Below, one piece after another: positions 11,593-42,475 of a stretch of DNA of 64,000 nucleotides. The stretch covers positions 1 to 64,000 of the forward strand of contig JBDRRP010000064.1 in assembly GCA_043825735.1 (NCBI GenBank), in the 5' to 3' direction. Each line of letters begins with the position of its first letter. Position 1 is the first letter of the stretch. A program made the position numbers and the translations under genes. The notes beneath the pieces are model-generated. The model saw only the letters and a list, made by a program, of their open reading frames with translations. It made no database searches and had not been told where the DNA came from. The DNA is from Pseudomonadota bacterium. GTDB lineage: Bacteria > Desulfobacterota > Desulfobacteria > Desulfobacterales > JBDRRP01.

Positions 11593-11617
11593 TGGAAGAA
11601 GAAAGGACTCAGAAAAG

Positions 11618-13321
11618 ATGCCCCGCCTGACGCATCGCTGTTGTCACCATGCCCGCAGCGGCGCCCTGATCGCAGCCCTTCTGATAACTGTCATGGCCAC
11701 GGCCCCGGCGATCGCCTCACCGACGGCCAAAAACGTCATCATGATGATCCCCGACGGGTGCAGCTTCGAGCAATACACTCTCGCCCGGTGGGTCAAAGGG
11801 GCGCCGCTGGCACTGGATGGGATCCTCACCGGCGCTGTAAGAACCTACATCGCCGATTCGGTGGTGGCCGACTCGGCTCCAGCGGCCTCGGCCTACGCCA
11901 CCGGCCGGCGGACCAGCGACAAACTCATCAGTGTCGCCCCGAAAACAGAAGGGTTGCTTCCGGGCGTACTCGCCCCCCCGGGCGAGGCCGCCTACCGCCC
12001 CCTGGCCACCGTTCTGGAAGCAGCAAGGCTCGCCGGCAAGGCGGTGGGCATCGTCGCCACCTCCCGAGTCTCCCACGCCACACCGGCGGCCTTTGTCTCT
12101 CATGTTTCCCGCCGGGACCTGGAGTTCGACATCATGGAGCAGGCCGTCTATCAGGGCGTTGACGTGGTGCTGGGCGGCGGCGGGAGCTATCTGCTGGGCG
12201 CGGGGCAACACTTGCCGGGCAGCGGCTGGGCCTGGCAGGGGCGGCGGCCGGACGGCGAAAACCTCACCGACGTATTGCACGCTCGCGGCTATGGCATCAT
12301 CACCACCCGCAAAGAGCTCCTAAACGTCCGGAACCGGCGGGTATTCGGACTGTTCGCATCCGGACACATGGCCCCCGACATCGACCGGCACCGGACGGCG
12401 CCCGAAGAACCGAGCCTGGCGGAAATGACGGCCGCCGCCATCGGCATCCTCTCGGCCGATCCCGACGGGTTTTTCCTCATGGTGGAAGGCAGTCAGGTCG
12501 ACTGGGCCGATCATGCCAACGACCCGGCCCACCTGGTGAGCGATCTGCTCATGTTCGATGCCGCCGTAAAAACCGCCATGGACTTTGCCCACACCGATGG
12601 ACGCACCCTGGTGCTGGCCATGCCAGATCACAACACCGGCGGCATGACCATCGGCAACAGCGCCACCAACGGCCGTTACTCACAGATGCCCGTTGCCGAT
12701 GTGGTGGCGCCCCTGAAGCGAATGACGGCCTCCTCGGGCGCCATCGTTCAGCAACTGGGCAAAGACCGGCGACCGGCGTCTCTCATAACGGCTATCGCGC
12801 GCGACTGGGGAATCCGCATCACTGTTGACGACGCCACCGATGTGCTTGAAAAAATGGCCGCCTATTCAGACACACCGCATTACGCCATCGGAGAAGTGCT
12901 ATCTCCCCGCTACCTGGTCCTGGGGTGGACCACCCACGGCCATTGCGGTGGAGACGTCCCGCTCGGCGCCTTTGGACCCGGCCGCCCCGCCGGACTCCTC
13001 GATGCGCCCGATATCGGCAGGACCGCGGCCGCGGCGCTGGGCCTTGATCTGGAAAATACGACGCTACGGTTGTTTGTGGATGCAGCCCGTGTTTTCGGGG
13101 CAGATAGCGTTTCCGTGGCCACCGACAGCCCGGAAAACCGCCTTGCCCGGATCGACTACAAAGGGAAAACGGCGATGCTCGCCGTCAACAAGAATCTTCT
13201 CCAAATGGATGGCCGGACCCATGAGTTGGAGGGGGTAGTGGTGTTCATCCCGGAAACGGGAAAACTCTACCTGCCTCAAGACGCTGTCGCATCTTTGAAA
13301 ACGACTCGGTTTCTGCCCTGA
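11618..13321 (+). CDS. phoA: Alkaline phosphatase (PhoA family)
   Basis: KNVIMMIPDG, DSAPAASA (catalytic Ser), HATPA, VEGSQVDWADH, DHNTGG and THGHCGGDV, with a signal-like N-terminus. Start is 11618. Confidence 0.9.
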   Translation: MPRLTHRCCHHARSGALIAALLITVMATAPAIASPTAKNVIMMIPDGCSFEQYTLARWVKGAPLALDGILTGAVRTYIADSVVADSAPAASAYATGRRTSDKLISVAPKTEGLLPGVLAPPGEAAYRPLATVLEAARLAGKAVGIVATSRVSHATPAAFVSHVSRRDLEFDIMEQAVYQGVDVVLGGGGSYLLGAGQHLPGSGWAWQGRRPDGENLTDVLHARGYGIITTRKELLNVRNRRVFGLFASGHMAPDIDRHRTAPEEPSLAEMTAAAIGILSADPDGFFLMVEGSQVDWADHANDPAHLVSDLLMFDAAVKTAMDFAHTDGRTLVLAMPDHNTGGMTIGNSATNGRYSQMPVADVVAPLKRMTASSGAIVQQLGKDRRPASLITAIARDWGIRITVDDATDVLEKMAAYSDTPHYAIGEVLSPRYLVLGWTTHGHCGGDVPLGAFGPGRPAGLLDAPDIGRTAAAALGLDLENTTLRLFVDAARVFGADSVSVATDSPENRLARIDYKGKTAMLAVNKNLLQMDGRTHELEGVVVFIPETGKLYLPQDAVASLKTTRFLP

Positions 13322-14430
13322 TCCTTGGCATCGTAAAGGGCGCTGTCGGCAATGGCGATAAGATGCACCGGAGCCACGCCGCCGGAGGGCACCCGTGTGG
13401 CGACGCCCAGGCTCACCGTGACACGGGGCGCCACAGCAGAAGCCGCGTGGGCGATATTCAGCCCGCTGATCGCCTGCTGAATGCTTTCGGCCAGGTGCAT
13501 CGCGCCTTCCACCGGCGTGTTGGGCAAAAGGACGACAAACTCCTCACCGCCATAGCGCGCCACCAGGTCGCCGGGACGGTGGAGCGCACTGCGGATGGCG
13601 GTGGCGACCTGCTTCAGGCAGGCATCGCCCGTGAGGTGGCCATAGGTGTCGTTGTAGGCCTTGAAATGGTCGATATCGCACATGATCAGTGACAGCGGGT
13701 TTTCTTCCCGCATCATTCGCCGCCACTCCAGATCGAGCAGTTCATCGAAGCGCCTGCGGTTGGCAACGCCGGTAAGCCCGTCGATGGCGGCTTGGCGGGC
13801 CAATATTTCGTTGGCCTCGGAAAGCGCACGCTCGACCGCTTTCCGAGGGGTAATGTCCTTGACCGATTCGACGATACCGATCATTTTCCCGTCAAGTCCC
13901 AGAAAGGGTGTGGCGGTGAGGATGTAGGAGAAGATCGCGCCGCCGTCATGGCCGGGTTTCTCCATGTCACACTCGCAGCGCGCCTGCCCGCGTTTCACCG
14001 AAACCATGGGGCAGGCCGCGCCATTGCAGACACTGCCGGACATCAACTCGTGACATTTCCTCCCGATGACATCCTTTTTGGCCATTCCCAGCAGACCCAG
14101 GAGCGTATCGTTGACCCGTTGCACGGTATAGCTCTCATCAATCACCCACATGCCGTCAGCGGAGGAATTGAATGTCTGCATGAGCTCGATTTCCACGAGC
14201 TCTCCGTCAACCACCAGCTGGTTGAGCCGCAGCATCTGGCCTTCGTATTCGCGGTGGGTATCTTCGAGTTCCCGGCGAAGTCCGGCCTCGGCGGCTTGGC
14301 TCTCTGCCAGGCGCTGTTCGAGCGTCGCGATGCGCGCTTCAAGCCGCGTGATGTTCGGATGTGGCGTCATATCGGCCGGTGACTTTTGGAAATGGTGGTC
14401 GTTCGCGAACCTGTGCGCCCGCGCCCTCAC
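13276..14430 (-). CDS. PAS-domain diguanylate cyclase
   Basis: Coiled coil, PAS, DGLTG.ANRR, RPGD I-site and ARYGGEEF. The 3' end overlaps phoA by 46 bp; the start is uncertain (14430 or 14370). Confidence 0.9.
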   Translation of the reverse strand: MRARAHRFANDHHFQKSPADMTPHPNITRLEARIATLEQRLAESQAAEAGLRRELEDTHREYEGQMLRLNQLVVDGELVEIELMQTFNSSADGMWVIDESYTVQRVNDTLLGLLGMAKKDVIGRKCHELMSGSVCNGAACPMVSVKRGQARCECDMEKPGHDGGAIFSYILTATPFLGLDGKMIGIVESVKDITPRKAVERALSEANEILARQAAIDGLTGVANRRRFDELLDLEWRRMMREENPLSLIMCDIDHFKAYNDTYGHLTGDACLKQVATAIRSALHRPGDLVARYGGEEFVVLLPNTPVEGAMHLAESIQQAISGLNIAHAASAVAPRVTVSLGVATRVPSGGVAPVHLIAIADSALYDAKDQGRNRVVFKDATAS

Positions 14431-14529
14431 GCAGAGGCCCCCCCTGTCCCTGAAACCATCATCGGCCGTTTCTCTCAGGACTTGAGGGTGTGGTGCGTGT
14501 CAAGACGTCGACGATGGGACACGCGGGGC

Positions 14530-15318
14530 TCAGGCATCCATGCCGGGCGGCAGGTCGCTGCCGGGAATCTTGGCGCGCACGGCAACCATGCGGTCTGAAA
14601 AGAGCTTGGCACATGTGGGGCAATAGCGGTGGTGGGTTTTTACATCGGGGTGATGGGACAGGGTCCGCTGCTGGACATGTTCGATAAACCGGGGCGTGGC
14701 AAACAGCTTACCGCACCCTTCGCAGCGTGCCAGCGGATGACGACCGATGACCTCGTCGCGAATGGCGATGGTGCGCACCCCATCGGAGTCGGCGACACGG
14801 ATGGCCCCGGTGGGACAAAGATTGGCGCAGGTACCGCAACCGATGCAGCGGCCCTCCACGGGCACCACATATTGGCCTTCGATGCGCTTTTCCATCTTGA
14901 GCGCGGCAGGCCCCACGATCTCCTTGCACACCCGGATACAGAGCCGGCATCGAATACACCCGTCAGGCCTCGGGCCGATGGGCACACCGTGGTCCTCGGC
15001 CAGTTGGCGGATGCCGTCGGCGGCCGGGGCCAGCCGAATCAGTCGCTCGAATGCCAGGATGCGTGCCTTGGCCACCGCCTCGCTGCGGGTTGTCACCGTC
15101 ATGGCAGGCTTGGCCTTGAGGATGCAAGACAGCATGATGGTCGTTTTGCTGCTGGTGGAAGTCACCTCGACAGCGCACAATTTGCAGGTGCCAGAAGGCT
15201 TGAGCGCCGGATGGTAACAGAGAGTGGGAATATTGATGCCATAGGCTCTGGCCACATCCAGAACGCTCTGACCGTCTTCAGCCATCAATGCCCTGCCGTC
15301 GATAAATATTTCAAACAC
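14530..15318 (-). CDS. 2Fe-2S/4Fe-4S protein (NuoG/HydA N-terminal-like)
   Basis: IPTLC..GTCKLC..SC (2Fe-2S), CIRCRLCIRVC and CIGCGTCANLCP (4Fe-4S), and C-terminal CEGC...CPTC. GTG start with GGAGA RBS. Confidence 0.85.
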   Translation of the reverse strand: MFEIFIDGRALMAEDGQSVLDVARAYGINIPTLCYHPALKPSGTCKLCAVEVTSTSSKTTIMLSCILKAKPAMTVTTRSEAVAKARILAFERLIRLAPAADGIRQLAEDHGVPIGPRPDGCIRCRLCIRVCKEIVGPAALKMEKRIEGQYVVPVEGRCIGCGTCANLCPTGAIRVADSDGVRTIAIRDEVIGRHPLARCEGCGKLFATPRFIEHVQQRTLSHHPDVKTHHRYCPTCAKLFSDRMVAVRAKIPGSDLPPGMDA

Positions 15319-15328
15319 GTCTATCTCC

Positions 15329-15772
15329 TTAATCGTCTCTCGCCGCGTGCATATCAGCGATATATCCTTCGAGCGTCTTCATTTCGCCCTGCAGGGCGTC
15401 GATGACCGCAGCGGCGATATCCGCCAATCGCAACACACCAACCACCACACCCCCGTCCATGACCGGCAGGTGGTGAATCCCCCGGCGCATCATGTCGTCG
15501 GCGGCCACCATTGCCGGCTTGTCCACCCCCGCTACCAGGGGATTTTCACTCATGACGCTGCGCACCGGGATGCCCCCGAGAGATCCGCCCTTCGGCAGAC
15601 ACCGTATCAGGTCGCCGGCGGTGAATATACCGACAGGGCTGCCATTGTCTATCACCACACAGGCGGATCGACCGCCGGTGGTCATGGACAACACCGCTGC
15701 GGCGACGGTACCGTCGGCAGCGGCGGTGCAGGCGGCATGCCGCTGCGGGTCCAGTACGTCCCTCAAGCGCAT
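15329..15772 (-). CDS. CBS-domain protein
   Basis: VGIFT.GDL, VRSVM and IHHLPV...VVGV. Confidence 0.85.
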   Translation of the reverse strand: MRLRDVLDPQRHAACTAAADGTVAAAVLSMTTGGRSACVVIDNGSPVGIFTAGDLIRCLPKGGSLGGIPVRSVMSENPLVAGVDKPAMVAADDMMRRGIHHLPVMDGGVVVGVLRLADIAAAVIDALQGEMKTLEGYIADMHAARDD

Positions 15773-15814
15773 TCCCCCTCCCATTGAGCGGTGCCGGAGC
15801 GATGGCTGCAGGCT

Positions 15815-16024
15815 TCAATCCAGCAGGCGCAGACAATCCTGTGGCAGGCGATGGGTCCCTTTGTCCTGAAGGCTCACCTCCACCAGGGCATCCGGGTCAT
15901 TGATAGCGGTATCCGGGTCTGTGATAATGCCGTGAAGCCCTACAAAAGCGTCCATGTAAGGCTCCCAACTATCGTCGGCCGACAACCGGAAAACCTCGAC
16001 TTTCTGGCCCCTGCGAAAGGACAT
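15815..16024 (-). CDS. Small hypothetical protein (69 aa), possible SH3/KOW-like beta-barrel
   Basis: AGGAGG RBS, in operon order, with the pattern MSFRRGQKVEV...VGLHGII...VEV...HRLPQDCL. Confidence 0.65.
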   Translation of the reverse strand: MSFRRGQKVEVFRLSADDSWEPYMDAFVGLHGIITDPDTAINDPDALVEVSLQDKGTHRLPQDCLRLLD

Positions 16025-16089
16025 TGTCGTCCTCCTGTTCTGCAAACGGGTTTCTTAAATTTGTGTTTCTAAGGCGGCACTGGATGTAT

Positions 16090-16146
16090 ACCACGAAGAA
16101 AAGCTAAAAACAGTTGGCTTAAAAAAATCTTCGTGCACTTCGTGGT
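16090..16146. repeat. Short inverted repeat ACCACGAAG...CTTCGTGGT (related intergenic repeat family)
   Basis: Arms at 16090-16098 and 16138-16146. Confidence 0.5.
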
Positions 16147-16181
16147 TATTCGCCTTCCGCGGTGTCCAGTTTCCCGCAAAC

Positions 16182-18365
16182 TCAGGGTTTGACGCCCGGC
16201 ACTGACGGCACCCGGGTTGGTGTGTTGTCGGCATGGCTGGCGGCCGAAGATGCGCGGGCGCAGGCTTCGCAGAGGTTCCGATCCGCCTGCACGGGACTCA
16301 CCGCCGCGGTCCGCTTCCTGACAAAATCAAGATACCGGGCCGGGCCGAGGGTCTTGCCGCAATCCCGGCAGATCACCAGCGGCTGCCGGTTCAAAATTGT
16401 GCCGCACAAAGACAGGATCCGCTCTCCGTCGCGGTCTTCGATGCGAATGGCATCGTTGGGACAGTTGGCAGCACAGGCCCCGCACAAAATGCAGCGCTCC
16501 TCGGTGATGCGAAAATCCGTCGAACCGGGATGATCGAAATCAAGATAACCCATCCGGAGGGCATCGATGCCCATTTTATCACGGCAGATCCGCACGCAGG
16601 TGCCGCACCGCAGACACACATCGCAGCGCAGGCAGCGCCGGGCCTCTTCCCGGACCATATTTTCCGTATAACCCAGTTCCACCTGCTGGAACGTGGTGCG
16701 CCGGCGTTCGATGTTGAGCAGCGGCATTTCGGGCCGCTTGATCACCATTTTGGTGGTGGCGGGCACTTCCAGCCACCGCGTCCGGCGGCGGCGCACCGGC
16801 ACCGGGGGCATTTGAGGCTGCGGGATGCCGGCAAAGTATCGATCGATGGCTTCCGCCGCCCGCTTGCCGCCGCCGATGGCCTCCACCACCGTGGCCGGTC
16901 CGGTGACCGCGTCGCCGGCGGCAAACACCCCCGGAATCGTGGTTTCCATGCTCACCGAATTGGTCTGGATGGTTCGCCGCCGGGTCCAGGCCATGTCACA
17001 GACGCCGCCCACGCATTCCATATCCACCTGCTGGCCGATAGCGCAGATCACGGCATCGGCCGGCAGGGTGAAATCGCTGCCGTCCACCGGCACCGGAGCC
17101 ATGCGGTCACTGCCTTCCTTTTTCACCAGTTCGGCCCTCAGGCAGCGCAGCCCCTCTACGTGTCCATTGCCAGTCACGGCGATGGGCACCGTAAGAAAGG
17201 CCATGTGGATGCCTTCCTCCTCGGCCTGCTCCACTTCCTCGGCGTCGGCTGGCATTTCGTTGCGGGTGCGTCGATAGGCGATGGTGACCGATTCGCTGCC
17301 CAACCTCAGACAGGTGCGGGCCGCGTCAATAGCCACGTTGCCGCCGCCGATCACTACCACGTGGCCTCCCGGGTGTTTGCGGTCACCGAGGGCGACGCGG
17401 CGCAATAAATCGATGGCATCCAGCACCTGGGGGTAGTCTTCCTCACCGGGGATTCCCAGCTTGAATGCCTTGTGGGCCCCGATGGTGAAGAGAAAGGCCT
17501 CGAAGCCCTCCTCGCGGAGCCGGTCCATATCCACATCCACGCCGTAGCGGGAGTTGAAACAAAATTCCACGCCCAGTGACGCGATCATCGCGACTTCTCG
17601 ATCGATGACTTCCCGTGGTAGCCGGTAGCGGGGGATTCCCACCATCATCATGCCGCCGGCCACAGGCTGGGCCTCGATCACCCGCACGCCGTAGCCCTTC
17701 AGCGCAAGATAATAGGCCGCACTCATGCCCGCCGGGCCTGCGCCGATCACCGCCACGGATTTCCCCTTGTCCGGCGCCTTGGGCGGATTGATATAGCGCC
17801 GGTCGGAAAGGGCCTTCTCCGCGGCGTAGCCTTTGAGAAACTTGATGGAGATCGGGGTGTCGATGCGGCCGCGCACGCACATGAACTCGCAGGGCCGCGT
17901 GCAAATCAGGCCGCAAACCCAGGGAAAGGGGTTGTCCTGCCGGATCACCGCGATGGCCTCGTCGTCGCGGCCCATGGCAATCAGGTTGACGTAGCTGGGA
18001 ACGTCGATGCCGGCCGGACAGGTCATCTGGCAGGGTGCCGGCACCAGGCGGACGCAATCACCGGTGGCGCAGTTGTGGGTGGCCACGTGGCTGACAAACG
18101 TTTCCCGGTGGGTGTCGATGCGTCCGGCCACGTCATCGGCGAGCATCCGGGACGGCGCGTCGGTGGGCTCGATGCGAAGATCGGCCACCAGATGGGTGAT
18201 GGCCGGCAGGTGATCATCACCGCCGCGGCCCCAGGCAATGTCACGCAGCAGATCGCGCACTTCCTCCGCCAGCCGCCGGCAGCGAGGGACCGCCAGGCGC
18301 CCGCTTTCCACCGTCTGGGCCACATCGTTGTACAGATCGTTCACCGGGCAGGTGTTTTTCTTCAT
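16182..18365 (-). CDS. FAD/NAD(P)H-dependent Fe-S oxidoreductase (GltD/SudA/NfnB-like) with C-terminal ferredoxin domain
   Basis: APCQMTCP, CGLICTRPCE..C, GAGPAG, GIPRYRL, GGGNVAIDAAR..YRR, GDAVTGP, EARRCLRCDVCLRCGTC and CILCGACAANCP. Confidence 0.9.
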   Translation of the reverse strand: MKKNTCPVNDLYNDVAQTVESGRLAVPRCRRLAEEVRDLLRDIAWGRGGDDHLPAITHLVADLRIEPTDAPSRMLADDVAGRIDTHRETFVSHVATHNCATGDCVRLVPAPCQMTCPAGIDVPSYVNLIAMGRDDEAIAVIRQDNPFPWVCGLICTRPCEFMCVRGRIDTPISIKFLKGYAAEKALSDRRYINPPKAPDKGKSVAVIGAGPAGMSAAYYLALKGYGVRVIEAQPVAGGMMMVGIPRYRLPREVIDREVAMIASLGVEFCFNSRYGVDVDMDRLREEGFEAFLFTIGAHKAFKLGIPGEEDYPQVLDAIDLLRRVALGDRKHPGGHVVVIGGGNVAIDAARTCLRLGSESVTIAYRRTRNEMPADAEEVEQAEEEGIHMAFLTVPIAVTGNGHVEGLRCLRAELVKKEGSDRMAPVPVDGSDFTLPADAVICAIGQQVDMECVGGVCDMAWTRRRTIQTNSVSMETTIPGVFAAGDAVTGPATVVEAIGGGKRAAEAIDRYFAGIPQPQMPPVPVRRRRTRWLEVPATTKMVIKRPEMPLLNIERRRTTFQQVELGYTENMVREEARRCLRCDVCLRCGTCVRICRDKMGIDALRMGYLDFDHPGSTDFRITEERCILCGACAANCPNDAIRIEDRDGERILSLCGTILNRQPLVICRDCGKTLGPARYLDFVRKRTAAVSPVQADRNLCEACARASSAASHADNTPTRVPSVPGVKP

Positions 18366-18469
18366 AGCTGTGTCCTAACCGAAAAAGAAAGCGGCGCCAA
18401 CGGCACCGGCGCGGTGCCGGATAGGGGCTCGGCGCCGATGCACAGGAGAGGATTGTCATCCGGTATCGC

Positions 18470-18976
18470 TTACTCCAGAGAAGCTACTGCCTGGGCATGC
18501 CGGTCGCGCTTCACCCGGGTCAGTTCATCGACTGCGGATCCAAACGACAGGCAATGGGTGGTGCATACCGTCACGCAGGCGGGCTTTAGCCCATCATCAA
18601 TCCGGTCCTTGCAGTAGTCGCACTTGACCGCCTTGCCGGTCTCCGGGTTCCACTGCGGCGCCCCCCAGGGACAAGCGGTGATGCAGGCCTTGCACCCCAC
18701 ACACATGCCGGCATCGATGAACACGATGCCGTCCTTGGTGCGTTTTTGCATGGCACCGGTCGGGCAGGCGGCCACACACCAGGGGTCTTCGCAATGGAAA
18801 CAGGGCATGAAAATATAGGCCGCTTTAGGTTTGCCGTTTATGAGCTTGGGCCCGACCTGCACGATCTGACTGATCTTGGGGCCCACCGGCAGATGCTTGT
18901 TGCTTTTACACTGCACCGTGCAGGTGTGGCAACCGATGCACTTCTTGGTATCCTGAAAGAGATAGTATTTGCTCAT
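18470..18976 (-). CDS. 4Fe-4S dicluster electron-transfer subunit (PhsB/PsrB/DmsB-like)
   Basis: CIGCHTC...C, CFHC..P.C..ACP, CVGCKAC..ACP and KCDYC...PACV..C. Confidence 0.92.
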   Translation of the reverse strand: MSKYYLFQDTKKCIGCHTCTVQCKSNKHLPVGPKISQIVQVGPKLINGKPKAAYIFMPCFHCEDPWCVAACPTGAMQKRTKDGIVFIDAGMCVGCKACITACPWGAPQWNPETGKAVKCDYCKDRIDDGLKPACVTVCTTHCLSFGSAVDELTRVKRDRHAQAVASLE

Positions 18977-19006
18977 GTCGATCTCCTGAAAATCTTAATA
19001 GGCCCC

Positions 19007-21091
19007 TTAGAGCGAATTGACCGTAACAAAGGTGTCGTGGAGTGCCGGGCTGCCGCCGACCATGTCGGTGATATTCTCCTGGAGCACGCTGTCGGAAACC
19101 CCGCGGTTGAAGCAGCGGGTGGCGAGCCGGGCCTCGTGGCCGAAACCGTGCACCATGAATACGGCCTCCGGGTGGATGAGCTCGGAGACGTAAGCCTTCA
19201 AGCGGCCGCTGCCGACTCCGGAGGTGATTTCAACAAGGTCCCCGTCTTTGATCCCCAGAGACGCGGCCGGTTTGGCATTCATCCACAGGCGGTTTTCCGA
19301 AAACAGCTCGTTCAGGTAGGGGTTGTTCTGGGTGGACACATGGGTGTGCATCACCACCCGCCCCACGGTGAGACGGAATGCACCTTTGGTGGGCGCGGGC
19401 ACCGGCGTGTAGGGCAGAAACGACGGCTGACCGGCGGATTCCAGCAGGGAGGAGACAAACTCGATCTTGCCCGAGGGTGTCTTCAGGGGCAGGCCGTCGG
19501 CCCGGTCGCAAAAAATGGGATCCTTGCAATAGGCCACAAACCCCTTGGCGTCGAAGTCTTCCAGGGTAAACCCGGTGCCTTCCAGCTGCCAGCGCACCAG
19601 ATCGTCCATGGTCTCGTAGGGGAAAAACTCGCCGTGCCCCAAGCGTTCGGCAATCTGCTTCATGATGACGGCGGCCTCCCGGGTGTCGTAGCGGGGCGAT
19701 ACCGCCTGCCGGCGCAAAAACATCTGGGGCTTCAGGCCGTTGGCCTGCTGGAGGCAGTCGGTGCGCTCAAAATAGGTGGATTCGGGCAGCACGACGTCGG
19801 CATACCAGGCCAGATCGCTGAAATTGACATCGATGGCCACGACCAGATCCAGTTTTTCCAAAGCTTCCTTGAACTGATTGGTGTTCGGAATCGATTTCAT
19901 CGGGTCGAACCGGTTGATGATCAGTGCCTTGATGGGATAGGGGTCCTCGTTGAGGATGGCTGGTGCCAGTATCTGGGCCACACCGTGGGCCGGATCGGGC
20001 AGCGGAAAATCCGGCGTGCCCACCTTGTCGAAGCGAATATCAGCAGGCTTGGGCAGCTTCTGGTCCACTAATTTGCGGGCCGCTTTGCCGCCGGCGACGC
20101 CGGGGCCTTTTTTGAAGAAGAATCCCCCCTTGTGCTCCACACTGCCCATGAGCGTGTTGAGGATCATGATGCCGCGGCGCAAGTAGACTTCGTAAGCGTG
20201 GTGCGCGCCGCGATAACCGAAATGGAAAATCACGGCAGGGGCGGCCTTGGCCACCTCCCGCACGAAATCGACGATTTCCGCCGCCGGCACCCCGGTCTCG
20301 CCTTCGGCCCACTCGGGCGTGTAGGGCTTGATGAAATCCTCCAGCGCGGCCAGGCCGTGAACCCAGCGGTTGACGTAGACGGCGTCATAGAGACGCTCCT
20401 TGAGCGCTACGTGCGTCATGGCATAAATGAGGGCCAAATCGGTGCCGGGCCGGATCATCCAATAGCGGTCGGCCTTGGTGGCGGTCACCGTCACCCGGGG
20501 GTCGATGTAGGTCATCTTGGCCCCCTTTTCCATGGCATCGGTCAGGCTGTTGACTTCCTTGACGGACACCGACTCGAAAATATTGCGGCCGAACAGCACG
20601 ATGTGCTTGGTGTTCTTGTAATCCATCCCCATCTCGGCGTCGGTGACACCGAAAAGGCTCCGGCACGCCGTGTTCACCGAACCTTTGCACAGGGCATCGT
20701 GGGAAAAATGGTTGGGAGAACCGATGGCCTTCATCAGCGTCTTGCTGACATGGGTGGCCAGGTTGGCCCGCTCGCCGAAGGCCACAGCGCGGCCGCCGTG
20801 GTCCTTGATTATGGCGCCGAGTTTCTCGGCCACAGTGTCCAGGGCCTCATCCCAGGACGCTTTGCGCCATTTTCCCTCGCCACGCGCGCCGTCGCGGATC
20901 ATCGGGTGTTGAAGGCGCTCGGCATCGTACTGCATTGAAATGCCGGCGGCACCCTTGGGACAAAGGCTCCCTTCCATTCCGGGCACGAGAGGGTTGCCCT
21001 CCACCCAGGTAACCTGCCCGTTCTTAACCGACACTTTGATGGGGCATCGGACCGAGCACATGAAACACAGGCTATAGACCGCTTTATCCAT
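19007..21091 (-). CDS. Molybdopterin oxidoreductase, PhsA/PsrA (thiosulfate/polysulfide reductase)-like, no Tat signal
   Basis: Starts MDKAVYSLCFMCSVRC...LCPKG (FS0 cluster) after a GGAGG RBS. Also SWDEAL, NHFSHDALC, IDPR, RPGTD, ADVVLPE.T..ER and HGFG. Confidence 0.88.
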   Translation of the reverse strand: MDKAVYSLCFMCSVRCPIKVSVKNGQVTWVEGNPLVPGMEGSLCPKGAAGISMQYDAERLQHPMIRDGARGEGKWRKASWDEALDTVAEKLGAIIKDHGGRAVAFGERANLATHVSKTLMKAIGSPNHFSHDALCKGSVNTACRSLFGVTDAEMGMDYKNTKHIVLFGRNIFESVSVKEVNSLTDAMEKGAKMTYIDPRVTVTATKADRYWMIRPGTDLALIYAMTHVALKERLYDAVYVNRWVHGLAALEDFIKPYTPEWAEGETGVPAAEIVDFVREVAKAAPAVIFHFGYRGAHHAYEVYLRRGIMILNTLMGSVEHKGGFFFKKGPGVAGGKAARKLVDQKLPKPADIRFDKVGTPDFPLPDPAHGVAQILAPAILNEDPYPIKALIINRFDPMKSIPNTNQFKEALEKLDLVVAIDVNFSDLAWYADVVLPESTYFERTDCLQQANGLKPQMFLRRQAVSPRYDTREAAVIMKQIAERLGHGEFFPYETMDDLVRWQLEGTGFTLEDFDAKGFVAYCKDPIFCDRADGLPLKTPSGKIEFVSSLLESAGQPSFLPYTPVPAPTKGAFRLTVGRVVMHTHVSTQNNPYLNELFSENRLWMNAKPAASLGIKDGDLVEITSGVGSGRLKAYVSELIHPEAVFMVHGFGHEARLATRCFNRGVSDSVLQENITDMVGGSPALHDTFVTVNSL

Positions 21092-21172
21092 TTGAACCTC
21101 CAGACTGAAATATGATTGCTCCGGAAAGCGCCAGGCTTCCCGCAGGGGGGAATCCGAAACTGCGTAGCACAA

Positions 21173-21188
21173 AGCAAATTCCATACCA
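21173..21188 (-). promoter_or_regulatory. sigma54 (-24/-12) promoter of the Mo-enzyme operon
   Basis: Minus strand TGGTATGGAATTTGCT (GG-N10-GC). Confidence 0.75.
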
Positions 21189-21367
21189 CAGCGGCCGGCT
21201 CCCCGGCAGGGGCCTGCACCGCCGTCGGGACGGCAGCAGTTGTATTTTCGGCGGGTTATGCCCACTGGCCTGAATTTCACCGCCCCCGTGGCCCCTGTCG
21301 GAACGACCGCAACCGCCTGTTTCGGGATAAAACTATTGCGGTGAACAATTTTTACTGCACCACAGTC

Positions 21368-21380
21368 CAACATACTGATA
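21368..21380 (-). promoter_or_regulatory. Candidate IHF site between divergent sigma54 promoters
   Basis: Minus strand TATCAGTATGTTG matches WATCARNNNNTTR. Confidence 0.45.
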
Positions 21381-21575
21381 ACACACTTTTTATTTTTATT
21401 GCCGGGCAACGCGACCTTCCGGCCTGCGACGCCTGGCCCCCTCGACGAAAGCATCGCGCGTCCCCGGTGCTCTCATAGAGCGATGACGCTGAAGTCGGCA
21501 CAACTTACCGTTATTATACATTAATTATAGCTATCCAGTGCCAATAACAGGCCAAGTACGTCACCCCCCCCGGCA

Positions 21576-21591
21576 TGGCATGTCTCTTGCT
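21576..21591 (+). promoter_or_regulatory. sigma54 promoter of the TauE operon
   Basis: TGGCATGTCTCTTGCT (GG-N10-GC). Confidence 0.85.
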
Positions 21592-21719
21592 GGGAATACA
21601 TCCAATCGAATCATCGTCTGTTTCATCATCCCTCCGAGGCCGGGGGGCAAGCCGTTAGTCTGGTGTTCAGGACGGAAGCGACCGTTCATAATCTTAATTT
21701 ATCTTTTCGGAGGAGGTTC

Positions 21720-22874
21720 ATGAGAAAACAATCGGTTACCATTCTTCTACTGTGCGCACTCGTTGCCGTTGCGGCCCTGACCCTGGTGGCGGCCGACGTC
21801 ACCGTGGCGCACGCCGACAAACTGGCCGAGGCCATCGCCAAGGCCCCCCAGGGCACCGCTAAAGGCCAGATCGACCCCAGCGGTGCGCCGGGTTACTTGG
21901 GTATCCCCGGCGGGCCGCAGCTCAACCCGCTCATCGGCTTCCTGTGGGCCATCTGGGTGGGCTGGATCTTTTCGACGGTCGGCGCGTTCGGGGGCATCAT
22001 GGCCGGCGTGGGGCATATGACCATCTACGGCCTGGGCGCCTACGCGAAAACCTTCAAGGATTCGGCCCCCATGCTGAACAAAACCATCACCGACAGCATC
22101 CGCGTTTCCAACCAGTGGCTCGTGGGGCTTTCGGCGTTGGTTTCCAGCATCAACTACGGGAAGCAGAAACGACTGGTCACCTCCCTGGGGTTCTTCCTGG
22201 GCATCGGCGCCCTGTTCGCCACCCTGTTCATCGTTTTCACGACCGCCGGCAAGATCAAGTTCTCCCAGTACCAGGGCTATTTCGGGCTGATCGTGTTCAT
22301 CATCGGCGGCTTCATGGTCTATGAGATGACCCCCAAGGGGCAGGCCTCCAAGAAGGCGGCCAAGGCTGCCGCCAAGGCCTTCGAGGAAGCAGCCAAGGCT
22401 AAGAAGGCCATCGAGGACATGGGCGTCAAAACTGTCAAATGGAGCCTGACCAAGACTGAAATCGCCTTCTTCGGCCAGACATTCAGTTTCAGCCCCATCT
22501 GGGCCTTCGCCGGCGGCTTCTTCATCTCGGCGCTGGCCTCCTTCCTGGGCATCGGCGGCGGCTTCCTGTACGTGCCATTCCTGACCAGTATCGTGGGGCT
22601 GCCCATGTTCGTGGTGGCTGGCACCTCCGCCCTCTCGGTGCTCATCGGCATGATCTTCGCCATCTTCAACTTCATGGTCCTCAAGGGGGTCCAGGTGCAC
22701 TGGGCCCTGATCGGAGTGGAACTGGTCGGGATCTTCATCGGCTCCATGATCGGTCCGCGGACCGGCAAATACATACCCGAAAAAGTGCTCAAGGGGATCT
22801 TCATCGTGTTGGCAGTGTACATCGGCGCGAAATACTCCCTGGCGGGATTCTTCGGCATCAAACTGCCCATCTGA
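21720..22874 (+). CDS. TauE/SafE (DUF81) sulfite-exporter family membrane protein
   Basis: GWIFSTVGAFGG, FLGIGGGFLYVP, VAGTSAL and GSMIGP. Start 21720 with GGAGG RBS. Confidence 0.88.
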   Translation: MRKQSVTILLLCALVAVAALTLVAADVTVAHADKLAEAIAKAPQGTAKGQIDPSGAPGYLGIPGGPQLNPLIGFLWAIWVGWIFSTVGAFGGIMAGVGHMTIYGLGAYAKTFKDSAPMLNKTITDSIRVSNQWLVGLSALVSSINYGKQKRLVTSLGFFLGIGALFATLFIVFTTAGKIKFSQYQGYFGLIVFIIGGFMVYEMTPKGQASKKAAKAAAKAFEEAAKAKKAIEDMGVKTVKWSLTKTEIAFFGQTFSFSPIWAFAGGFFISALASFLGIGGGFLYVPFLTSIVGLPMFVVAGTSALSVLIGMIFAIFNFMVLKGVQVHWALIGVELVGIFIGSMIGPRTGKYIPEKVLKGIFIVLAVYIGAKYSLAGFFGIKLPI

Positions 22875-22982
22875 TCGGGCCTTCCGGCCGCGCCGGCGCC
22901 TTCCAGTGCCGGTGCGGCCAAAACACCCCCGCCGGCGGGCAACCGCAGCGCCGGCGCCCTCAAAAAAGGCAAGCTGACAACA

Positions 22983-23573
22983 ATGGAAACCGTGTTTCAC
23001 CACCTATACGTCATCATGGACCAGTACCTGATCTTCTTCTTCAGGCTGTCCGATGTCCCCATCGTCGGCTTCCTGCTCGGATCGTTCTGCCTGGCCTTCT
23101 TCAGCGTCATCCCGGGCGAGCTGACGGTCTCCCTGGCGGTGAAGTTCAACAAGCGCTACACGGACGCCATGGCGGCTGAAATCAACGAAAAGGAACGGCT
23201 GTCCATGGCAGCCTACGGCGCCGGGGACAAAACCAGCTACAAGGCCCTGAACAAGGACGCCACGGACGCCTGGGGCAAGCACTTCTTCACCATGGCCGCC
23301 TACTCGGCCGGTATGCTCTGGCCGGTACCCTTCGCCCTGTCCTGGTTGCACGGCCGGTTCGCCGGAGTCGATTTCGCCCTGGCCTGGCCGCTCGACCGGC
23401 TGCTGACCCCGTCGGTGAGCTACGCGTTCGCATTTATCCCGATCTACATCCTGGCACGGATGGCCTTCGGGCGGCTCCGCCGGTATCTGCCCTACTTCAA
23501 AAATGTCCAGACGGCACTCGACGCGGCCGGCAACCACGCCGTCACCGGCCCTGCCGCCGTTTCCGGCATCTGA
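22983..23573 (+). CDS. Hypothetical membrane protein accompanying TauE
   Basis: 196 aa with hydrophobic segments; codon usage matches neighbours; in operon position. Confidence 0.75.
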   Translation: METVFHHLYVIMDQYLIFFFRLSDVPIVGFLLGSFCLAFFSVIPGELTVSLAVKFNKRYTDAMAAEINEKERLSMAAYGAGDKTSYKALNKDATDAWGKHFFTMAAYSAGMLWPVPFALSWLHGRFAGVDFALAWPLDRLLTPSVSYAFAFIPIYILARMAFGRLRRYLPYFKNVQTALDAAGNHAVTGPAAVSGI

Positions 23574-23691
23574 AGGCATCCCTTCCGGTTTGTCACAGTG
23601 GCCTCCGCGACCCGGACCGTCCTTTGCGACACCCGGTCGCCGGAACATCCGCTTGACACGCGCAAAGAAGGCTTTCATCATTGAGCCTATC

Positions 23692-24183
23692 ATGAGACCG
23701 CGCCCTTACCATATGGCCCTCGCCGCGCTGCTGGCGCTCCTGCTGGTGGCCCTCAGCGCTCAGCCGTCCCTGGCGACCCAGACCCACGGCGAACCCGAGG
23801 GGCTCGTGGTGCATCAGCTCGCCCACGTGTTTTTCTGCCTCTCCATGGGCATATTCGTGTTCTGGCTCCACCGCCATCGCCTCACCGGGGCCTCCGGCTG
23901 GCGGCTGATCCAGTACGCCGCCCTGCTGCTCATCCTTTGGAACCTCGATGCCATGGTCGCCCACTTTCTCGATGAACAGGTCCGCCTGCTCACGGTCACG
24001 CAGGTGGATACCTGGCACATCCGTATCGACGCCCTGCCCGGCTATGAATCGCTGGGCTCCTGGTACTACATGGCCAAGCTCGACCATCTGATCAGCGTCC
24101 CGGCCTTGTTGCTGCTCTATCTCGGGCTGCGGCGGCTGACCGCGGATATCCAGCGCCCCCCTGGCAAGCGGGAGCAGCCATGA
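23692..24183 (+). CDS. Hypothetical His-containing membrane protein coupled to the kinase
   Basis: Signal-like N-terminus, THGEPEGLVVHQLAH, WNLDA..AH and KLDHL. ATGA overlap with the kinase. Confidence 0.75.
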   Translation: MRPRPYHMALAALLALLLVALSAQPSLATQTHGEPEGLVVHQLAHVFFCLSMGIFVFWLHRHRLTGASGWRLIQYAALLLILWNLDAMVAHFLDEQVRLLTVTQVDTWHIRIDALPGYESLGSWYYMAKLDHLISVPALLLLYLGLRRLTADIQRPPGKREQP

Positions 24184-25682
24184 TCTTCTCCTCTGTGCCC
24201 ATCCTGGCAATAGACCTTGCCGGCTCAGTACTCATGATCGTGCTAAGCTTTCTGTGCCTGCACCTGGCTTTCTGGCTCAAGCGCCAGGAGCCGGACAACA
24301 TCATCTGGAGCTACCTTCAGTTTCTCTGCCTTGGACTGGCAGGGTTCGCCATCTCGCGGTCTGCCGGGCACATCCTGAGGCAGATCCTGGTACTCAGCGA
24401 CAACGGTGCCACCTGGAAGGTCATCAGCCCCTACAGCGGCGCCTTCAACTCGGTGATGTTCGCGCTCGTGGGGGCCGTCACCCTCTTTTTCGGCACCATC
24501 TGGCGCACTTACCGCCAGATCGCCTTGGACCGCGAAGCGCTGCGAACCGCGCACGGCGAGCTGGTGTTTCTCAATCAAAATCTGGAGCAGATGGTCGATA
24601 CGCGCACCGCGGCGCTGAGCCGCTCGGAGCGCCGCTACCGGCGCATCTTTGAAATCTCCCGGGACGTCATCCTCGTCACCGACGCCCTCGGCGATATCCT
24701 GGACCTGAACCCACTGGGAATGACCACCTTTGCCGGCATGAGCGAGAGGGAGACGCCCGCGGGGAAAAACTTTGGATCATTCTTTTGCAAGCCCAAGGAC
24801 TGGGACGCCGTTTTGCGCGACATCACCTCAGAGGGCTTTGTCATCAGCAAGGAGCTGCTGCTGCGCCGGCTGGACGGGCGCACCCTGCACGCCCTGATCA
24901 GCGGGAGCCTGGACCCTGCGACCGACGGCGAGCCGGCCACCATCCACTTTCTGGTCAAGGACATCGAGCAGCTGCGCCAGATGGAAAAGCAGATGGCCCA
25001 GGCCGACAAACTCGCCTCCATCGGAGAGCTCTCGGCGGGCATCGCCCATGAGATCAACAACCCGCTGGGGGTCATCCTGGGGTACACGCAGCTGCTGCTC
25101 CGCAAGGAGACCGGAGACGACGAGCGGCGGGAAGATCTTAAAATCATCGAAAAGCATGTGCGCAACTGCAAGACCATCGTGGAAGACCTGCTCAACTTTG
25201 CGCGCAGCTCACCGACGGTGCGCGAGCTCGCCGACATCAACGTGCTCGTCGAAGATGTCGTCACCTTCATCACCCATCACGCCAAAATGGGGAAAACGAC
25301 ACTGGCGGCCCACTACGACCGTCAGTTGCCCAGAATCCGGATCGATGATAAAAAAATCCGTCAGGTCGTCATCAACCTCGTCATGAACGCCCTGTATGCG
25401 GTGGGCGGATCGGGCAGCATACGGATCGATACCGAACTGGCGGCATCGGAAAACCGCGCGGTCATCAGCGTTTCCGACGACGGGCCCGGTATCGACCCGG
25501 TTCACCTGCCCCGTGTTTTCGACCCGTTTTACACCACAAAACCGACCGGCGAGGGCACGGGGCTGGGTCTGTCGGTGAGCTACGGCATCATCACCAACCA
25601 CGGCGGCGACATTCAGGTGGAGAGCGTCCCCGGCCAGGGGACGGTGTTTCGGGTATCGTTGCCCCTGGCGTCCGATTCCTGA
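24180..25682 (+). CDS. PAS sensor histidine kinase (NtrB-like)
   Basis: Three TMs, PAS, AHEINNPL, NLVMNA, DDGPG, FDPFYTTK and GTGLGL. Confidence 0.93.
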   Translation: MIFSSVPILAIDLAGSVLMIVLSFLCLHLAFWLKRQEPDNIIWSYLQFLCLGLAGFAISRSAGHILRQILVLSDNGATWKVISPYSGAFNSVMFALVGAVTLFFGTIWRTYRQIALDREALRTAHGELVFLNQNLEQMVDTRTAALSRSERRYRRIFEISRDVILVTDALGDILDLNPLGMTTFAGMSERETPAGKNFGSFFCKPKDWDAVLRDITSEGFVISKELLLRRLDGRTLHALISGSLDPATDGEPATIHFLVKDIEQLRQMEKQMAQADKLASIGELSAGIAHEINNPLGVILGYTQLLLRKETGDDERREDLKIIEKHVRNCKTIVEDLLNFARSSPTVRELADINVLVEDVVTFITHHAKMGKTTLAAHYDRQLPRIRIDDKKIRQVVINLVMNALYAVGGSGSIRIDTELAASENRAVISVSDDGPGIDPVHLPRVFDPFYTTKPTGEGTGLGLSVSYGIITNHGGDIQVESVPGQGTVFRVSLPLASDS

Positions 25683-25767
25683 CGGATGAAAGGCGCTCAG
25701 CGCCTCCCTGCGCCCTCGACGCACCGGGAGAGTGTTGCCGGGTCAACCGCCCGCAAAAGGAACGACC

Positions 25768-27177
25768 ATGACCAACCGGACCATCCTTGTGGTGGATGAC
25801 GAACAGGACATGCGCCAGCTGCTCAAACGCAGCCTGGAGCCCGATCTCCAATGCCGGGTGGATACGGCCCCGGGCGGAGAAACCGCCCTGCAGATGATCG
25901 CGCAGAACGGATACGATCTGGTGCTGGCCGACATTAAAATGCCGGGCATGGACGGCCTTGAGCTGCTCGACCATATCAAACACCTGCAGCCCGATCTCAC
26001 GGTCGTGATGATGACGGCCTACGGCCAGGTGGACACCGCCGTCGCCGCCATGAAAAGCGGCGCCTACGATTTCATCACCAAGCCTTTCGAACACGACACG
26101 CTCCTCATACGCCTGAAAAAGGCCCTGGAGCGCAGCGATCTGCTCCGGGAAAACCGGCGGCTTCAGGTCGCGTGCAATGGCAGCAGTGCCTTTGAAAGCA
26201 TGGCGGGCAAGAGCGCGAAGATGAAGCAGGTCTTCGAAACCGTCCACACCGTCGCCAAAACCGAGCTGACCGTCCTCATCACCGGGGAATCCGGTGTGGG
26301 AAAGGACCTCACGGCCCGGGCCATCCACGCCCTGAGCAACCGGTGCACCGGCCCCTTCGTGGCGGTCAACTGCCCCACCGTGCCCGAACACATCCTCGAG
26401 AGCGAACTGTTCGGTTACAAAAAAGGGGCGTTCACCCACGCCACTCAAAACAAGATCGGCCTGTTCCAGGAAGCCCACGGCGGAACGATTTTTCTCGACG
26501 AAATCGGGGACATCAGCCCCACGATTCAGACCAAGCTGCTGCGTGTGCTTCAGGACAAGGTGATCAAGCCGCTGGGCGACACCAAGGCCATTTCGGTGGA
26601 TGTGCGGATCATCGCCTCCACCAACCAGGATCTTCAGAAGAAAATCCGTGAGGGTGAATACCGGGAGGACTTTTTCTATCGTCTCAACGTACTGCCCATT
26701 CGGCTGCCCGCTCTCAGGGAACGGCCGGAAGACATCCCGGTGATCGTCAATCACCTGCTGAAAAAGCACTGCCAGGAGATGGACCGGGAGCTCAAGCGGT
26801 TGAGCCCGGCCCTCATGGAACGGTTTATGAAACACCGATGGGTTGGCAATGTTCGGGAGATGGAAAACCTCATCCTCCAGGGGATCATTTTTTCAACCGG
26901 TGATACCATCCACCCCGTCGACGTGGGTCTGGACGGCGAGCCGGCGGTGGATTGTGCCCCCGCAGCCTCCCACTGGCACAAGCTGCCGTACAAAACGGCC
27001 AAGGAGCAGGTCCTCCAGCAGTTTAACGAATCGTTTATCGCCGGTCTGCTCAGCGCGACCGGCGGCAACGTCACCCAGGCCGCCCGAGAGTGCGGAATAG
27101 AGCGCCAGGCCCTGCAGCAGATCATGCACCGGTACGGCATCACCGCCGATCCGTTCCGCAGCACAAAAAATGAATAG
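25768..27177 (+). CDS. sigma54-dependent response regulator (NtrC family)
   Basis: REC domain, GESGVGKD, ESELFG..KGAFTHA, FLDEIG, FYRLNV, GNVRE and a Fis-type HTH. Confidence 0.95.
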   Translation: MTNRTILVVDDEQDMRQLLKRSLEPDLQCRVDTAPGGETALQMIAQNGYDLVLADIKMPGMDGLELLDHIKHLQPDLTVVMMTAYGQVDTAVAAMKSGAYDFITKPFEHDTLLIRLKKALERSDLLRENRRLQVACNGSSAFESMAGKSAKMKQVFETVHTVAKTELTVLITGESGVGKDLTARAIHALSNRCTGPFVAVNCPTVPEHILESELFGYKKGAFTHATQNKIGLFQEAHGGTIFLDEIGDISPTIQTKLLRVLQDKVIKPLGDTKAISVDVRIIASTNQDLQKKIREGEYREDFFYRLNVLPIRLPALRERPEDIPVIVNHLLKKHCQEMDRELKRLSPALMERFMKHRWVGNVREMENLILQGIIFSTGDTIHPVDVGLDGEPAVDCAPAASHWHKLPYKTAKEQVLQQFNESFIAGLLSATGGNVTQAARECGIERQALQQIMHRYGITADPFRSTKNE

Positions 27178-27222
27178 GGCCGCGCCACCACGGAGAACAC
27201 GGGAAAACACAGCAGATACATG

Positions 27223-27463
27223 TTCTCGCGCAGAGACGCGGAGACGCAGGGAACACCAATTGTATTTCTCAAACCAAGGAGCATATTGAAATCAACAATG
27301 GATTATTTTACCCTCCCAATGAGTCGCCCCCTCAGGGAGGGGCAGCAATGAGCCGCAAAAGGACCCAGACCTGCCGCTCTCATGGCGGAAGGAGACCTAT
27401 CGGAGGGTGATTTAGCATTTACCATTACGCTTTTCTCTGCGCCTCAGCGTCTCTGCGCGAGAA
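27223..27463. mobile_element. MITE-like element with 31-bp inverted repeats (CGCAGAG family)
   Basis: 27223-27253 matches the reverse complement of 27433-27463 at 28/31 positions. The interior shares ATCAAyAATGGAT with the 4240 element. Confidence 0.65.
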
Positions 27464-27493
27464 AATTGAACACCGCATCAGGAGATAATTGTC

Positions 27494-42459: not shown

Positions 42460-42475
42460 TGGCACGACCATTGCG
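42460..42475 (+). promoter_or_regulatory. sigma54 promoter of the first PII gene
   Basis: TGGCACGACCATTGCG. Confidence 0.85.

Follow-up and report, generated by a model that had tools for sequence, protein, structure and literature searches.

A leaderless, anchor-less PhsAB-type operon with an NADP(H)-type flavoprotein in Desulfobacterales: a candidate soluble thiosulfate reductase

Thiosulfate is a key junction in the sulfur cycle of sediments. In the Phs/Psr enzymes, e.g., PhsABC of Salmonella or PsrABC of Thermus thermophilus (PDB 2VPW), a catalytic subunit A with molybdenum-bis(pyranopterin guanine dinucleotide) (Mo-bisPGD), the FS0 cluster and a cysteine ligand is joined to a four-cluster subunit B. 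The operon described here lies on positions 1 to 64,000 of contig JBDRRP010000064.1 (assembly GCA_043825735.1; this 64,000-nucleotide stretch is called the window) of a member of the Desulfobacterales. It shares these two subunits, but differs from PhsABC and PsrABC in that the twin-arginine (Tat) leader and the C anchor are missing, an NADP(H) flavoprotein replaces quinol and the enzyme would be cytoplasmic. Tat-less, PhsC-less PhsAB pairs are already in print (PMC13490349; PMC9751629). DITHS69_2027/2028 of Dissulfuribacter thermophilus have neither PhsC nor a Tat leader and are co-induced there with TauE and its partner (PMC13490349), and GF1_30490/30500 of Desulfolithobacter dissulfuricans, also without PhsC, encode proteins of 701/168 amino acids (aa), compared to 694/168 aa here (PMC9751629). 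Unlike at our locus, nuoA follows GF1_30500 (PMC9751629), and the accessible parts of both papers describe no flavoprotein partner; the comparison uses descriptions and lengths only. Cytoplasmic PhsAB-like cleavage of thiosulfate was proposed in these studies on disproportionators, which do not settle the electron donor and ask for biochemical work (PMC13490349; PMC9751629).

The operon is real, widespread and uncharacterised; it would work like PhsAB, yet stands outside PhsABC/PsrABC (no Tat leader, no anchor), Bfu and NfnSL. Regarding its function, we see roughly even chances that the core of A, B and flavoprotein is a soluble NADPH:thiosulfate oxidoreductase of the cytoplasm, inducible and passing its sulfite on to DsrAB. 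The gene order is as described for both strands by the initial annotation of this DNA: the minus strand carries A, B (168 aa), the flavin adenine dinucleotide (FAD)/Fe-S flavoprotein (727 aa), a 69-aa open reading frame (ORF), a CBS protein, a 262-aa Fe-S protein and a PAS-GGDEF protein, and the plus strand carries, divergent from the enzyme genes, TauE, two membrane proteins (M1 and M2), a kinase and a sigma54 activator. For comparison, we used 52 loci: 12 named ones and 20 from relatives, both sets picked by A, plus 20 of 31 matches to the small 69-aa ORF. These loci are related rather than independent, and several end at contig edges. The core genes are:

19007..21091, minus strand: catalytic Mo/W-bisPGD subunit A, 694 aa, no leader
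18470..18976, minus strand: four-cluster Fe-S subunit B, 168 aa (PhsB/DmsB/WorS type)
16182..18365, minus strand: NADP(H)-type FAD/Fe-S subunit (the flavoprotein), 727 aa

Catalytic subunit and missing anchor

Subunit A starts at ATG 21091 (minus strand), with GGAGG (21101-21097) 5 nt upstream, and its N-terminus MDKAVYSL leads directly into C9 of the FS0 motif CxxCxxxC. Homologs annotated elsewhere are mostly 694–696 aa long (684–707 aa among the best 120), both the window and the relatives shown have a methionine 6–10 residues ahead of the FS0 cysteine, and the Tat motif scan flagged locus L052 only. The reading frame is open for 121 codons further upstream, to ATG 21454. As a Tat leader this extension was discarded: it contains no Tat motif, it starts upstream of the minus-strand sigma54 site, so that it would not be on that transcript, and the homolog lengths speak against it. 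The absence of a twin-arginine leader, as put forward in the initial annotation, consequently holds by motif scan for both the start and the upstream extension.

The Pfam trio for a Mo/W-bisPGD subunit with FS0 was matched by A, whose metal-ligand Cys135 aligns with Cys173 of PsrA (best PDB match T. thermophilus PsrA, E 1e-111) and which carries a PhsA-like segment G-Y-R(294)...E-x3-RR. In the family scan, PhsA was best with 609 bits, followed by the next family with 260, while the ArrA model reached 195. A FastTree phylogeny of 24 rows placed 17 Tat-less A proteins in one clade (support 100) inside Psr/Phs (93), apart from Ttr, Dms, Fdh and acetylene hydratase, and as sister to Salmonella PhsA (87), the outgroup branches being long. 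Scan and tree both bear out the Psr/Phs lineage suggested earlier. Two subgroups with differing active-site motifs make up the Tat-less clade, and A of the window falls into the more PhsA-like one (clade I), in which G-[YH]-R..E..RR and the stretch following the Mo ligand are nearer to Salmonella PhsA than to PsrA-type proteins. A is the sole PhsA-like gene found in the host genome. A plasmid candidate for a SoeA tree reference turned out not to be soeABC.

Family scans of the 12 locus genes did not find the NrfD/PhsC family, and tblastn with eight anchor queries yielded homologs at 0 of 51 loci, while the Tat-bearing positive control L052 was matched. Elsewhere in the host genome, each of five NrfD genes adjoins its own four-cluster Fe-S gene. 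M1 and M2 were considered as hidden anchors and rejected, as M2 tracks the kinase (16/52 loci) and M1 tracks TauE. Both the missing PsrC/PhsC/NrfD anchor and the reading of a soluble cytoplasmic enzyme thus agree with the leaderless A and the gene content of the loci. Subunit B itself retains a basic C-terminal segment in most homologs. In Desulfofundulus, a second B-like gene lies on the opposite strand near the operon (L004:6153-6656; L006:6141-6737).

Flavoprotein and its predicted docking on subunit B

Residues 105–581 of the flavoprotein form a GltD/NfnA/DsrL-type core with StnC/NfnA-type proteins as best matches. Its motif Y364-R365-R366 (YRR) is invariant in 23/23 aligned flavoproteins; in NfnB this motif holds the phosphate of NADP, and it is also the mark of the NADP(H)-only DsrL-2 (PMC7596348). 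The motif hence points to NADP(H), not NADH, as cofactor, which retains the nicotinamide-linked flavoprotein of the initial annotation and narrows its NAD(P)H to NADP(H). E160 and R248, likewise invariant in 23/23, match NfnL-type ligands and are not diagnostic of bifurcation. Upstream of the core, residues 1–104 represent a helical remnant of BfuB/NuoF without the flavin mononucleotide (FMN) domain, and a profile of residues 1–105 matched nothing beyond its own family and proteins of the NuoF/BfuB type (E 1e-5 to 1e-12). Most B1/N3 cysteines are gone from this remnant, and C6, H93, C99 and C104 are invariant, corresponding to the Cys3His Zn site B2 of BfuB (PMC12018979). The C-terminal part (residues 584–702) contains two WorA-like [4Fe-4S] clusters plus CxxC..CxxC. 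With a score of 499, the flavoprotein is below the PRK12771 cut-off of 516.

A complex model of flavoprotein and B reached 0.64, compared to 0.00 for the best of three controls, a mark attained by 116/157 solved pairs and 2/215 mismatched pairs. At least 77% of contacts recur between runs (partner predicted local distance difference test, pLDDT, 82), and in the modelled interface flavoprotein residues 593–715 lie on B, with residues 628–630 against B 93–95. The B cysteine group at this interface (Cys92-102) presumably holds FS4, which in DmsB/PsrB is the cluster nearest the anchor. The WorA-like C-terminus of the flavoprotein is therefore predicted to dock on B; WorA itself docks on a four-cluster subunit via its A4 cluster and a C-terminal helix (PMC12318220). 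Together with synteny at 45/52 loci, the model favours the flavoprotein as electron-input partner, as had been proposed.

The flavoprotein of Desulfofundulus is longer and reaches about 930 aa (L004:12628-15411; L006:12646-15441). The L004 extension is a signalling domain of the methyl-accepting chemotaxis protein type and a chemoreceptor gene comes next; thiosulfate or energy taxis is possible.

Distribution, accessory genes and regulation

Across the 52 loci, Tat-less A was found 48 times, B and flavoprotein 45 times each, the small ORF 35 times and a TauE-family gene 31 times; NuoE plus NuoF (full BfuBC) occurred in two and Rnf in one. All 12 named loci carry A, B and flavoprotein, including two Desulfofundulus species and other Bacillota, and the B-flavoprotein adjacency spans two phyla. 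A-subunit matches were present in 17/40 sampled relatives and the small ORF, used as marker gene, in 31/401 genomes of the phylum; Desulfobacterales form the majority among the named close homologs. The host is a sulfate reducer whose genome (6.8 Mb, 100% complete) has dsrA and aprA, both over the cut-off, with dsrA on contig C68, away from the locus.

Several variants were observed. Orphan A genes occur in L050 and L051 (also G281 and G306), the flavoprotein is truncated in L034 and split in L009, and L056 and L066 hold the module without an adjacent A, both genomes carrying a lone A elsewhere (45–46% identity). In L043:3117-10835, A and B are followed by an Rnf operon in place of the flavoprotein. 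NuoE/NuoF-like BfuCB, a BfuA-like gene and the flavoprotein occur together in L002:3824-9983 and L065:4638-9945, with FdhD also in L002; by gene content these two are candidate bifurcating forms. Moreover, comparison with the same-genus locus L038 revealed a mosaic: B, flavoprotein, small ORF, kinase and activator are 78–94% identical and both sigma54 sites are identical, whereas A (70%), TauE (61%) and M1 (42%) are less alike, and TauE is 82–87% identical in other families. Low identity of A, TauE and M1 amid such neighbours suggests swapping of catalytic and transporter genes.

Further features of the minus strand are:

15815..16024, minus strand: 69-aa acidic SH3-like (PetP/KOW-fold) protein
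15329..15772, minus strand: CBS-pair protein, optional
14530..15318, minus strand: 262-aa WorA (short BfuA)-like protein with 2Fe-2S, 2x4Fe-4S and a C-terminal four-Cys site
13276..14370, minus strand: PAS-GGDEF diguanylate cyclase, co-oriented with the operon, not a conserved member
16090..16146, unstranded: REP-like inverted repeat copy, a genome-wide repeat, not operon-specific

The 69-aa ORF follows the flavoprotein gene in 20/20 loci picked by it. Its predicted fold is SH3-like (pLDDT 83), with PetP (Z 8.2, root-mean-square deviation 2.8, 64 aligned) tied with KOW. It is acidic (13 D/E vs 7 K/R), and a role as ferredoxin dock was not adopted in view of this acidity and the middling Z scores. 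The 262-aa protein matched WorA (9MQX_A, E 4e-39, residues 3–238) and is a full-length WorA homolog, i.e., a BfuA-type Fe-S subunit. Its gene is found in 21/52 loci and the CBS gene in 11/52, always alongside the WorA-like gene; both, listed as operon members by the initial annotation, are present here and optional elsewhere. The diguanylate cyclase had been counted as well and drops out, since a co-oriented GGDEF gene follows the operon in 0/52 loci, with one opposite-strand match (L059).

The promoter region and the plus-strand operon comprise:

21173..21188, minus strand: sigma54 -24/-12 site of the enzyme operon
21323..21360, unstranded: tandem imperfect palindromes (GCA-N~10-TGC type), candidate enhancer
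21368..21380, minus strand: integration host factor (IHF) consensus match adjoining the candidate enhancer, weakly conserved
21576..21591, plus strand: sigma54 -24/-12 site of the transporter/regulator operon
21720..22874, plus strand: TauE/SafE (TSUP) permease, 384 aa
22983..23573, plus strand: membrane protein M1
23692..24183, plus strand: membrane protein M2, signal-peptide-like start
24180..25682, plus strand: membrane PAS histidine kinase
25768..27177, plus strand: NtrC-type sigma54 enhancer-binding response regulator

A sigma54 site within 250 nt of the A start was found in 17/39 upstream regions (window included), compared to 3.2% of shuffles. The back-to-back sites are as the initial annotation had placed them, and both are retained in nine relatives; the one at 21576-21591 is the best sigma54 match of the window, a rank shared with a site at 42460. 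In Bacillota, a sigma54 site near the start was absent in the four regions tested, and Crp-type genes occur in Bacillota loci. The proposed IHF-like site does match its consensus, but is found in only 6/39 regions, a count that has no chance control. Most conserved between the promoters is the palindrome block 21323-21360 (10 intergenic regions, hand-picked for having sites), a candidate enhancer for the activator which the earlier annotation had overlooked.

A search of the host genome with the TauE protein matched this gene only. M1 is present in 23/52 loci, always with TauE, and M2 in 16/52, where the kinase follows in 15/16 with none seen in L072. M2 conserves H32, E36, H41, H45, H91, D131 and H132, i.e., seven His/Asp/Glu in or near membrane helices, and the membrane domain of the kinase (24180-24550) conserves S59-R60-x2-G63-H64. 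An Atlas search returned no family for M2, and the profile similarity between M2 and the kinase membrane domain is too weak to count (probability 2.9%, E 0.015). Judged from its residues and neighbours, M2 is probably a sensor accessory, not PsrC/PhsC, and could perhaps form with the kinase a sensor of two chains, for a metal or an anion, that belongs to no known family.

Apart from these genes, the REP-like family has 122 matches in the genome, both strands counted, and further short repeats lie near 27190-27250 and 27440-27465 of the window. A methionine-sulfoxide-reductase-like fusion (recognised by eye) and an alkaline phosphatase flank the operon (8630-9925 and 11345-13321); neither appears linked. 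A scan for sigma70 promoters and terminators gave promoters near chance level and no clear operon-end signal. Available RNA runs matched the locus in at most 0.06 of words, with contigs mostly <95% alike, and were not used for transcripts or levels.

Proposed mechanism, alternatives and known systems

From the observed gene content, motifs, synteny and lineage and from the modelled docking, we infer the following scheme for signal, donor, substrate and direction. A sulfur anion signal would act through kinase and activator to switch on both sigma54 promoters, and TauE/M1 would move thiosulfate in or sulfite across. NADPH, supplied possibly by a separate NfnAB of the host genome (which has an NfnS-domain gene beside a GltD-like gene), would reduce the FAD of the flavoprotein, in line with the observed motif. 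From its clusters, electrons could, as modelled, enter B at the Cys92-102 cluster, on the face that a PsrC/PhsC anchor would occupy, and pass via FS0 to the Cys-ligated Mo/W of A, where thiosulfate would be split to sulfide and sulfite, as its lineage suggests. DsrAB would keep sulfite low, so that the thiosulfate step would run downhill without bifurcation. A Nernst estimate from E0' values, run for four assumed conditions, puts the thiosulfate couple at -225 to -334 mV, compared to -320 to -367 mV for NADPH, and direct NADPH coupling should thus suffice while sulfite is low. In line with this, D. thermophilus raises a Tat-less PhsAB, and also a TauE and its partner, when it disproportionates thiosulfate (PMC13490349).

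Several points weigh against this assignment. A is only 36.5% identical to PhsA and stays below the NCBIfam PhsA cut-off (609 vs 694 bits), with the first 40 model positions unmatched, and SoeA, bSreA, SrrA and ArrA are absent from the tree. Substrate and activity were read from sequence and model, and the score of the complex model may stem from resemblance to WorA-WorS, a solved pair. The electron module also serves another A subclade, whose active-site motifs differ, and hence does not by itself define the substrate. Where thiosulfate is scarce and sulfide abundant, little drive is left by the estimate (-334 mV). Relatives use other donors, e.g., Rnf in L043, and Nuo is in print as a donor module (PMC5165239; PMC9751629, supplement). 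Moreover, the Psr/Phs lineage also includes polysulfide, selenite and sulfur reductases (PMC10100899), and PhsAB of D. dissulfuricans is low under thiosulfate disproportionation (PMC9751629).

The same soluble, NADPH-fed build could act on another substrate, i.e., polysulfide/persulfide, tetrathionate, trithionate or a selenium oxyanion, for detoxification or as electron sink, which we consider rather unlikely. TSUP permeases are broad and two active-site subclades share one module, both of which speak for such a role. The PsrA/PhsA/SrrA/aSreA lineage covers those substrates as well (PMC10100899), but the PhsA-like clade-I segments and the response to thiosulfate in D. thermophilus (PMC13490349) argue for thiosulfate. 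A reversed flow is very unlikely in our view: a Soe-like sulfite:NADP+ oxidoreductase that would receive sulfite through TauE and form the oxidative branch in disproportionation. Transfer from sulfite to NADP+ would be downhill (about -400 to -430 vs -320 to -367 mV), SoeA is a cytoplasmic Cys-ligated relative (PMC10100899) and TauE is cited as a sulfite exporter (PMC3949148). However, the bSreA/SoeA lineage is separate from Psr/Phs (PMC10100899), A groups with PhsA, and the YTD marker YeeE/YedE was not found in the host genome. Least probable is that AB works alone with electrons from ferredoxin or reversed AprAB, the flavoprotein being merely co-regulated. The published D. thermophilus model has reversed AprAB as electron source (PMC13490349), and the orphan A genes and the two loci with a module lacking an adjacent A fit it too. 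Against it stand the B-flavoprotein adjacency over two phyla and the defined interface of the complex model, and the lone A elsewhere in both genomes with an A-less module fits action in trans.

Electron bifurcation, raised by the initial annotation, would need either a bifurcating or confurcating NfnL-like FAD or a WorA-like protein docking BfuBC encoded elsewhere, with ferredoxin and NAD(P)H as drive; as an overall explanation we deem it unlikely. The match of E160 and R248 to NfnL-type ligands, the full-length WorA homolog, the complete NuoE/NuoF-like genes in two of the 52 loci and six strong NuoF-type FMN-domain matches elsewhere in the host genome are in its favour. Glutamate and arginine are, however, also typical of non-bifurcating GltD. 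NfnL has Glu where NfnA has Lys (PMC12018979), and Glu is also found in DsrL (PMC7596348). The Bfu site requires FMN, B1 and C1 (PMC12018979), whereas the N-terminal remnant has neither FMN domain nor B1 cysteines, which makes bifurcation unlikely at this locus, where NfnS, BfuC and an FMN-binding BfuB are all absent. None of three PF10418 (NfnS) matches in the host genome is on the locus contig, the WorA-like gene is missing from 31/52 loci, some ending at contig edges, and the energetics do not require bifurcation. The proposal is thus not supported for the locus itself; bifurcation may still occur in trans, or in the two relatives that carry NuoE/NuoF. In a broader and decidedly speculative picture, A-B would be a plug-in cytoplasmic sulfur-bond reductase that might polymerise through the C-terminal helix of B into a WorSL-like Fe-S nanowire, capped either by the flavoprotein or by the WorA-like protein, which would recruit BfuBC in trans; thiosulfate cleavage could then switch between NADPH and NADH/ferredoxin and supply the reductive step so far missing from thiosulfate disproportionation in Desulfobacterota and Desulfofundulus.

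If the NADPH:thiosulfate oxidoreductase reading is true, many sulfate reducers would reduce thiosulfate in a soluble step that consumes NADPH, rather than in a periplasmic, quinol-linked one. Annotation pipelines label A as periplasmic phsA. From the operon follow NADPH as candidate donor, the flavoprotein as putative third subunit and a predicted docking site, each directly testable. In the literature, we found no GltD-type NADP(H) partner described for any Psr/Phs subunit, with most subscription papers (including older Desulfovibrio thiosulfate-reductase biochemistry) and some supplements out of reach. In Desulfofundulus, phsA is tied to disproportionation by annotation only in the accessible part of PMC11206085.

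Among systems with a related catalytic part, PsrAB-Nuo of Thermodesulfovibrio sp. N1 likewise joins a Psr/Phs AB pair to a non-canonical electron module, but a membrane Nuo core takes the place of the soluble NADP(H) flavoprotein (PMC5165239). The C-less PhsAB of Desulfurella is Tat-bearing (PMC6378623), and the MOLY cluster (MolyABC), defined by export and the TorD-type chaperone MolyC (PMC12998232), differs from our locus, where no TorD family was found among the 12 genes and A has no leader. WorABCSL of Acetomicrobium mobile (PDB 9MQX) resembles the 262-aa protein and the C-terminus of the flavoprotein through WorA (PMC12318220), yet has a catalytic subunit of the WOR family and a bifurcating WorBC core, which is absent here. 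Closest to the flavoprotein are DsrL-2 and NfnA/StnC of Nfn-Bfu (PDB 8OH5, 9N5U), which share the GltD-type FAD core, YRR and flanking ferredoxin domains (PMC7596348; PMC12018979). The DsrL order of ferredoxin, FAD/NAD(P), linker and ferredoxin domains is similar here but with added domains, namely the BfuB-like N-terminal remnant and the C-terminal four-Cys site, and the link is to a molybdoenzyme, not to dsrAB. In the DsrL-2 model, NADPH is likewise donor to a sulfur reductase (PMC7596348), and NSR of Thermotoga maritima provides a measured case of cytoplasmic NAD(P)H-dependent thiosulfate/polysulfide reduction, there by a flavoprotein only, with no molybdenum subunit (PMC9431562).

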